DNA of 64,000 bases from a candidate division TM6 bacterium GW2011_GWF2_32_72 (GCA_945882015.1 CAMCVM010000005.1:7376-71375), one strand, 5' to 3'; positions 43,432 to 44,940 are shown, numbered from the stretch's first letter. Program-made: numbers and translations. Notes: a model not told the origin generated them from the letters alone.

Positions 43432-44940
43432 TCAAAGGTATTGATTTACAAAAGCAAGCATTTGAGCTCTATCCATAACATCATCTGAACGAGCTATAAT
43501 TTGTTTGTTTTTAATCACCACAAAATGAGGGACCTTAGGAGCTTCATATTTTTTAACCAAATCAAAGGCAATTGAAGCATCGATTTTAACAAATAAAACC
43601 TTATCTTTAAGCTTTGTACCAACCCATTCTGCAACAGGCATCATATGCATACAAGCTGGACAAAATAAAGTGAAAAAATCAAGCACAATAAGCTCATGAT
43701 CTGACTCTTTCATAATGGTATTAAGCTCAAGTTCAGAATTAGCTTGTTTAACCTTGATCATGTTTTGCAAGTATGGCTCATACAAAAAAGGTTCTAATTT
43801 TTTTTCAATATTTCCATTGTATCCAATCTCACTTAACCACCAAACAGCATCAAGACCCCCTTTTATGCCATCGCCTGCTGCTACCCCTGCTTGTTTATAA
43901 CGAGGGTCAGAAACATCTCCTGCGGCAAAAACACCTGGTGCAGAAGTATATTGATTACGCTCTTTAAGCTCAATATATCCATTACCATCAAGTTTAATCT
44001 GATCTTTAAAAAGAGCGGTATTAGGGGTATGGCCAATAGCTAAAAAGACCCCTTTAACCTCTGGCCACTCTTCTTTTACTTTTGTTTTATTATTAATCGT
44101 AACAACAGAAGAAACTTTGCCGTCTGCTCCTTTAATTTCTGTTAAAGAAGTATTAAAAATAATTTTAACGTTATCACAATCTTCAAGACGTTCCAGCATA
44201 CTTGGCGAAGCCTTTAATGTTTCACTTCTGACCAACATTCTTACTTCGCGAGCATAAGAAGAAAGCTCCAGTGATTCTTCAACTGCAGAATCTCCTGCTC
44301 CAACAACCACTACAACATCACCTTTATGATACGGTGCATCACAGATTGCACAGTTAGTAACACCTTTTCCCCAGTAGGTCCGCTCACCTGGAATTCCTAA
44401 AAAGCGAGCATTAGCGCCCGTTCCAATAAAAATAGCCATAGCTTGTAATGTTGTACCGTCTGATGTTACTACTTTATAAGGCCATTCACTCAGATCTACA
44501 GATTCAGCTGATTCAGAAACCATTAAAGCTCCAAAACGTGCTGCTTGCTCTTCGCAATCTTTAACAACCTCTGACCCTCTAATTTTTCTAATTCCTGGCC
44601 AGTTTTCAATATAAGAAGTTTCGGTCAATTGCCCACCTGGTTTTGCACCTTTAAGAACAACTGTTCTAATTTTAGTTCGGGCTCCATACAGTGCCGCTGC
44701 CAGAGAAGCTGGACCTGAACCTAATACTAAAAATGGAACTATATTACCTTTATTATAAGCATTTTCAATGCTAACCTCAGCCGCTTTGAAAGGCCTGCCT
44801 AAGCTTATTATCTTATAAACATCCTTATAATTACCGTACAAGAAAAAAACTAGTCCTATTAAAAATATCCCTAGAAAAAAAAATCCACCGACAGTTCTTG
44901 CAAGGCGCTTTTTAAAAATGTCCATAAATCTTGCTCCCAT
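43432..44940 (-). CDS. trxB: Thioredoxin reductase fused to a C-terminal thioredoxin, with N-terminal TM anchor
   Basis: GSGPAS, PGGQL, CAICD, GAGDSAVEE, GVFAAGDV; C-terminal DFFTLFCPAC; N-terminal GGFFFLGIFLIGLVFFLY. Confidence 0.9.
   Translation of the reverse strand: MGARFMDIFKKRLARTVGGFFFLGIFLIGLVFFLYGNYKDVYKIISLGRPFKAAEVSIENAYNKGNIVPFLVLGSGPASLAAALYGARTKIRTVVLKGAKPGGQLTETSYIENWPGIRKIRGSEVVKDCEEQAARFGALMVSESAESVDLSEWPYKVVTSDGTTLQAMAIFIGTGANARFLGIPGERTYWGKGVTNCAICDAPYHKGDVVVVVGAGDSAVEESLELSSYAREVRMLVRSETLKASPSMLERLEDCDNVKIIFNTSLTEIKGADGKVSSVVTINNKTKVKEEWPEVKGVFLAIGHTPNTALFKDQIKLDGNGYIELKERNQYTSAPGVFAAGDVSDPRYKQAGVAAGDGIKGGLDAVWWLSEIGYNGNIEKKLEPFLYEPYLQNMIKVKQANSELELNTIMKESDHELIVLDFFTLFCPACMHMMPVAEWVGTKLKDKVLFVKIDASIAFDLVKKYEAPKVPHFVVIKNKQIIARSDDVMDRAQMLAFVNQYL

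Follow-up and report, generated by a model that had tools for sequence, protein, structure and literature searches.

The fusion of thioredoxin reductase (TrxR) and thioredoxin (Trx) known from Mycobacterium leprae is a cytoplasmic protein that lacks an N-terminal hydrophobic signal. To our knowledge, a periplasm is not where NAD(P)H-dependent enzymes are expected, and the use of NAD(P)H there would be unprecedented; the reducing power of the envelope is thought to arrive only through DsbD/CcdA-type relays from cytoplasmic Trx. A search of the literature on membrane-anchored or periplasmic TrxR, or on Dependentiae and NADPH, found nothing relevant. In NTRC of plastids and cyanobacteria (PDB 7p9d/7p9e), a low-Mr TrxR is likewise followed by a C-terminal Trx in one polypeptide. 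Two motifs mark the NADPH site of TrxR, GGGxxAxE for the pyrophosphate and VxxxHRRDxxRA for the 2'-phosphate, and binding of the 2'-phosphate has been ascribed to three arginines (PMC5627308). The locus described here, from a member of the Dependentiae, which are obligate protist parasites (PMC4776705), adds a membrane-anchored form to the known theme of TrxR-Trx fusions.

The window, that is, the whole stretch of 64,000 nucleotides that was analysed, belongs to a genome of 819 kb that is 92% complete and has a G+C content of ~34%. An open frame of 502 aa on the (-) strand (43432..44940) encodes the fusion, and those relatives of the protein that have names belong to Candidatus Babeliales / Dependentiae (TM6). 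Met6 is the likely true start (ATG at 44925, with GGAG 8 nt upstream). The N-terminus reads MGARFMDIFKKRLAR and continues into a 21-residue hydrophobic stretch, TVGGFFFLGIFLIGLVFFLYG (residues 16-36). Here a basic n-region, KKRLAR (residues 10-15; 44896..44913, (-)), precedes a hydrophobic signal anchor or TM helix (residues 16-38; 44827..44895, (-)), which is retained even if translation begins at Met6. A true start beyond the helix, which the preliminary description had raised against its own reading, is ruled out: after Met6 and before the FAD motif, the frame contains a single ATG, GTG or TTG (TTG, codon 34), which lies within the helix and leaves no usable start, and the family conserves the helix. 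Scans for promoters and terminators at the fusion locus gave nothing better than shuffled sequences.

The architecture first read from the DNA, with its basic N-terminus, TM helix, TrxR bearing CAIC, Trx bearing FCPAC and the variant motif VRSETLKA, was confirmed in every detail. A linker of low confidence (residues 39-66; 44743..44826, (-); pLDDT 50-57) joins the helix to the low-Mr TrxR module (residues 67-371; 43828..44742, (-)), which is identified by Pfam, NCBIfam, PDB and fold matches. Pfam places Pyr_redox_2 at 71-358 (1.5e-41) and Thioredoxin at 410-499 (5.9e-13), the NCBIfam TrxR model TIGR01292 scores 311.3 bits, just under its equivalog cut-off of 343.45, and the best solved relative by PDB sequence match is M. 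smegmatis TrxR (9.4e-70). The FAD-binding GSGPAS (residues 74-79; 44704..44721, (-)) has G74 and G76 in 262/262 aligned rows, the other 6 of the 268 family rows being gapped in these columns. The cysteines of the redox-active CAIC (residues 197-200; 44341..44352, (-)) are kept in 267/268, and the pyridine-nucleotide pyrophosphate motif GAGDSA (residues 214-219; 44284..44301, (-)) corresponds to GGGDSA in ~250/268; extended to GAGDSAVE (214-221), it matches GGGxxAxE. The GD motif, GVFAAGD (336-342), is also conserved in the family. An interdomain linker with a short helix in the AlphaFold model (residues 372-397; 43750..43827, (-)) leads to the Trx module (residues 398-502; 43435..43749, (-)), with FCPAC at 426-430 and the cis-Pro at 471. 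The Trx active site is thus not the canonical WCGPC; CP[SAT]C prevails in the family, and CPHC occurs in a few relatives. The model, built on 64 homologues, has a mean pLDDT of 91.6; in it, a helix (3-35) and a disordered linker precede the TrxR and Trx folds, and the two-domain TrxR fold superposes on M. smegmatis TrxR (5uth) with a TM score of 0.91 and an rmsd of 2.2 Å.

All of the 120 closest homologues share this architecture, and in nearly all of them a hydrophobic segment of ~20 residues comes after a basic N-terminus. The full-length fusion is found in at least 88 of the 121 sampled Dependentiae genomes, some of which encode two. Among 337 fusion sequences, an N-terminal hydrophobic signal is present in 319 (a hydrophobic core of 18 residues or more in 159, a shorter h-region in 127 and a lipobox-like site in 33) and a hydrophobic N-terminus is absent in only 10, some of which are fragments. 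The anchor is a conserved feature and not a start-codon artefact. In distant representatives it frequently gives way to lipoprotein-type leaders (...LLSGC, ...FLVGC, ...LFASC) followed by a polar stretch, and other distant relatives have cleavable Sec signals (..ANA|LD, ..LSA|DV, ..LHA|TP). Eleven aligned members of the lipoprotein type, 39-48% identical, differ over the rest of the leader, but Cys24 is invariant in them and Gly23 nearly so (LxGC). LspA (signal peptidase II) is encoded in the genome of the window. In a midpoint-rooted tree of TrxR modules, made without outside TrxB or NTRC sequences, the lipobox proteins P0096 and P0101 and the Sec-signal proteins P0174, P0177 and P0148 fall in the clade of the window protein, and the soluble Dependentiae TrxRs form a separate clade. 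A second signal-bearing clade includes proteins of Babeliales MAGs and of MAGs labelled Chlamydiae or Parachlamydiales (contigs of up to 1.9 Mb); the chlamydial fusions have typical cleavable signals, WCGPC and VRKDxF[RK]A. Because the anchor is replaced by a lipobox or a cleavable Sec signal in these relatives, the family looks exported.

The predicted 2'-phosphate site, VRMLVRSETLKA (residues 233-244; 44209..44244, (-)), aligns to VTLIHRRDEFRA, with VRSETLKA (237-244) set against HRRDEFRA. One Arg and one Lys are present in place of the three arginines of the TrxB pattern VxxxHRRDxxRA, and since no more than these two remain, a preference of the fusion for NADPH is not assured. The family has the consensus VR[GKS]DxMRA at this site: R238, at the position of Arg176, is Arg in 245/268, position 243 (Arg181) is Arg or Lys in 239/268, the His175 position is Val, and the Arg177 position is Gly, Lys or Ser. 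The preliminary description had contrasted VRSETLKA with HRRxxFRA. The motif does differ in this way, but a loss of NADPH binding is not favoured, because the variant is family-wide and one Arg and one Lys are kept; judged from the alignment, VRSETLKA looks more like a conservative version of a VRxDxxRA site common to the family than like a degraded NADPH site.

A TrxR match was obtained in all 121 Dependentiae genomes, and a soluble paralogue of ~310 aa was seen in many. The paralogue of the same genome, outside the window (G000 C3:53553-54455), reads HIFDKLTA at the corresponding site and has none of the three 2'-phosphate arginines. The soluble paralogues of other Dependentiae read [HQ]I[LM][DPE]x[LFI][TS]A in 20/20 cases, with no arginine at the three positions, and the fourth position of the motif is acidic in many of them. 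NAD kinase (PF01513) was found in none of the 121 Dependentiae genomes, all of them at least 90% complete, and in 14/14 controls, and no G6PD was found in the genome of the window. These two absences suggest a cytoplasm with little or no NADP(H), which, taken with the lost arginines, would fit a cytosolic TrxR adapted to NADH; an NADH-linked cytosolic thioredoxin system is predicted across the phylum. The anchored enzyme appears to keep an NADPH-type site, which only the host could then fill. The supply of NADP(H) and the contrast between the paralogues together form the strongest of the indirect arguments for placing the two enzymes in different compartments. Four tandem genes for NTT transporters (TLC family, ATP/ADP-translocase type; G000 C3:3037-8692) are counted in favour of an outward-facing enzyme as well, host nucleotides reaching the inner membrane. 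The earlier suggestion that NADPH would have to come from a host agrees with the missing NAD kinase and with a paralogue devoid of the NADPH arginines; the host origin of the cofactor is itself something that we infer.

We therefore favour, with a probability of roughly 0.55, a periplasm-facing, signal-anchored NAD(P)H-thioredoxin system that is fed by host nucleotide. The fusion would keep its N-terminus in the cytoplasm and expose its catalytic domains to the periplasm. The FAD-bound TrxR would accept hydride from a pyridine nucleotide, most likely NADPH, which would diffuse in from the host cell and, if the bacterium is unable to make it, would have to come by this path. The hydride would reduce the CAIC disulfide and, through it, the fused CPAC thioredoxin, which would then reduce disulfides or sulfenates on envelope proteins. 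TatC was found in none of the 121 Dependentiae genomes, so export by Tat is rejected; the route would be Sec, with FAD bound outside the cytoplasm. Folding and FAD binding on that side of the membrane are uncommon for an exported enzyme.

The main rival is a cytoplasm-facing, membrane-tethered enzyme of the NTRC kind, which would use imported or endogenous NAD(P)H and act on membrane-proximal clients such as the cytoplasmic side of DsbD or the neighbouring AAA protein. We consider it less likely, although several observations fit it. The fusion is a flavoprotein in need of NAD(P)H in organisms in which the Tat pathway was not found, DsbD is encoded in the genome, and the AAA domain of the FtsH-like neighbour is cytoplasmic. 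Basic residues flank the helix on both sides: the C-flank has four K/R per 15 residues here and a mean of 3.2 in close homologues, which makes the positive-inside rule, used alone, weak for this subfamily. The N-flank nevertheless carries the greater net charge in most homologues (76/117 close and 93/117 distant ones), and a cytoplasmic location is impossible for those relatives whose leader has an invariant lipobox or a cleavable Sec signal. A tether on the cytoplasmic side also leaves unexplained why the soluble paralogue has lost all three arginines when the fusion has kept two basic residues. The outward orientation first proposed from the positive-inside rule is a prediction of topology that gains comparative support from the conserved anchor and from the lipoprotein and Sec-signal relatives.

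Comparison of 20 loci across the order reveals a backbone of a divergent AAA gene, the fusion, a variable insert and pepA. In the window, the AAA gene (45128..48274, (+)) encodes an FtsH-like AAA+ protein of 1048 aa with an N-terminal signal or anchor and one AAA module related to p97/FtsH; the HExxH protease motif is lacking, and a large domain of ~460 aa is probably extracytoplasmic, in the periplasm. Of the 20 Babeliales loci, 18 have this conserved neighbour next to the fusion and 17 have pepA close by. On the other side, 104 nt downstream of the fusion, lies the gene for a giant secreted protein of 2504 aa (35813..43327, (-)), which carries a signal peptide, matches no Pfam domain and has 10 Cys, most of them closely paired along the chain. 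It occupies the variable island between the fusion and pepA. Homologues of it, 23-30% identical, are found at the same position in 7/20 loci, a position shared in some families only, and one more locus has an unrelated ORF of 2250 aa.

In many Babeliales a pair of genes comes after the fusion: one encodes an exported alpha/beta-hydrolase of ~350 aa (GFSMGA), the other a thioredoxin-like protein of ~220 aa that bears a signal, lacks Cys and has a tail rich in Tyr, Gly and Trp (hydrolase and Trx-like insert loci: L045:5599-7354, L047:8007-9994, L058:9083-10863, L059:10917-13004). A 194-aa protein encoded in the window at 35195-35779 (-) contains C2H2 zinc fingers of the eukaryotic type (41 bits), and further small C2H2-like ORFs, whose N-termini resemble signals, are present on contig C2 (L161) and possibly on C16 (L001).

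The preliminary description had suggested that the fusion could be a redox partner of the adjacent Cys-containing giant protein, and in its full form this alternative makes the fusion a dedicated partner that keeps the Cys pairs of the giant protein reduced, or reshuffles them, as that protein is exported. Both genes have the same orientation, with no terminator-like site in the 104-nt gap, a signal peptide and Cys pairs set close together would suit such a client, and a giant ORF recurs at this position in 7-8 of the 20 related loci. A partnership is possible at this locus, but the fusion has a much wider distribution than the giant gene and is followed in 12/20 loci by other genes, among them the exported hydrolase and the Cys-less Trx-like protein. 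Because a giant homologue is present in only 7/20 loci, partnership is not a property of the family, for which the pairing with the AAA gene (18/20) is far more constant, and a dedicated role of this kind is improbable.

For the periplasm-facing system that we favour, a candidate client in this genome is a glutathione-peroxidase (GSHPx) homologue on contig C2 of G000 (L161:1387-1962; 122 bits), which has the leader MKLLYAALALVLLTGC with a lipobox, LLTGC, and two cysteines ~46 residues apart. Cys-type GPx enzymes are thioredoxin-dependent, which makes the lipoprotein a plausible local client. Its occurrence in only 7/121 Dependentiae genomes (6 above the family cut-off) rules it out as a general client of the fusion family. 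No match over the cut-off to AhpC/TSA peroxiredoxin was found in the genome of the window (92% complete), nor was MsrA found there, so that an NTRC-like role in the reduction of peroxiredoxin is unsupported. A crude pattern scan of the genome revealed no other anchored Rossmann enzymes, with a pattern so narrow that it missed the fusion itself.

The classical route to the periplasm is encoded as well, as a soluble TrxR, a WCGPC Trx and a DsbD that has its alpha, beta and gamma parts; the genome of the window encodes a TM-anchored WCPAC Trx too. DsbB was found in none of the 121 Dependentiae genomes, VKOR in 32 of them and in none of the window genome's own family, and DsbA-like PF13462 is almost absent from the genomes surveyed; a respiratory chain is reportedly lacking in the phylum (PMC4776705). 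These patterns, together with a Trx motif that is CPxC (CPHC in a few relatives) and not CGPC, raised the question of a periplasmic, QSOX-like flavin sulfhydryl oxidase that would replace DsbA/DsbB by passing electrons from envelope thiols through the CPxC Trx, CAIC and FAD to O2. Such an oxidase is very improbable: the pyridine-nucleotide site (GGGDSAxE plus R...R/K), needless in an O2-linked enzyme, is conserved family-wide, electron flow from thiols to NADP+ is thermodynamically uphill from established redox potentials, and the fusion and VKOR co-occur in many genomes and are thus not complementary. A relation of the fusion to DsbB and VKOR by complementarity was in fact sought and rejected, as no clean pattern emerged, DsbB being absent everywhere and VKOR patchy.

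The wider claim, to which we would give somewhat less than even odds, is that Dependentiae and environmental Chlamydiae, which are obligate intracellular bacteria, export a complete NADPH-thioredoxin system to the periplasm or the surface and run it on host NADPH. If this is so, it would be a means of parasitising the reducing power of the host, and because NADPH would be present only inside the host, it could switch envelope disulfides to the reduced state upon host entry. A widespread exported TrxR-Trx in protist parasites that are apparently unable to make NADP would be a new route of reducing power into the envelope, one that would tap the NADPH pool of the host directly, in a manner comparable to what ATP/ADP translocases do for energy. 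The fusion would be a concrete candidate for defending or remodelling disulfide-bonded envelopes within hosts. The absence of the NADPH arginines from the cytosolic TrxR leads to the prediction that the soluble enzyme uses NADH and the anchored one NADPH.

Among the known systems, NTRC resembles the fusion in its FAD, its CAxC motif and GGGDSAxE. It differs in being soluble, with WCGPC and the full HRRD..R, whereas the fusion is signal-anchored and has FCPAC and VRSE..K. NTRC serves 2-Cys peroxiredoxin, and AhpC/TSA was not found in the genome that encodes the fusion. In the PDB searches the fusion matches NTRC no better than it matches unfused TrxRs (4.9e-65 for 7p9d against 9.4e-70 for M. 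smegmatis TrxR), the TrxR part alone being aligned. The TrxR-Trx of M. leprae, set apart here by its description, has the same domain order and likewise comes from a bacterium with a reduced genome, but is cytoplasmic and has no hydrophobic signal at its N-terminus. Classical TrxB (E. coli 1tde, M. smegmatis 5uth) is ~40% identical to the fusion with a TM score of 0.9 and has all catalytic motifs in common with it except part of the 2'-phosphate site; the fusion departs from it in the N-terminal anchor, the added Trx and the score for TIGR01292 (311 against 343 bits). QSOX of the eukaryotic secretory pathway, like the fusion in its periplasm-facing reading, combines Trx with a flavoenzyme in an extracytoplasmic compartment, but it has an Erv flavin fold, works in the oxidase direction and lacks a nucleotide site. 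The DsbD/CcdA system with TlpA, ResA and CcmG has no homology to the fusion beyond the Trx fold, and yet would have the same proposed job, in which a membrane-anchored Trx fold reduces envelope thiols. DsbD relays electrons of cytoplasmic Trx across the membrane, whereas the entire chain of the fusion, from NAD(P)H to Trx, would sit outside.
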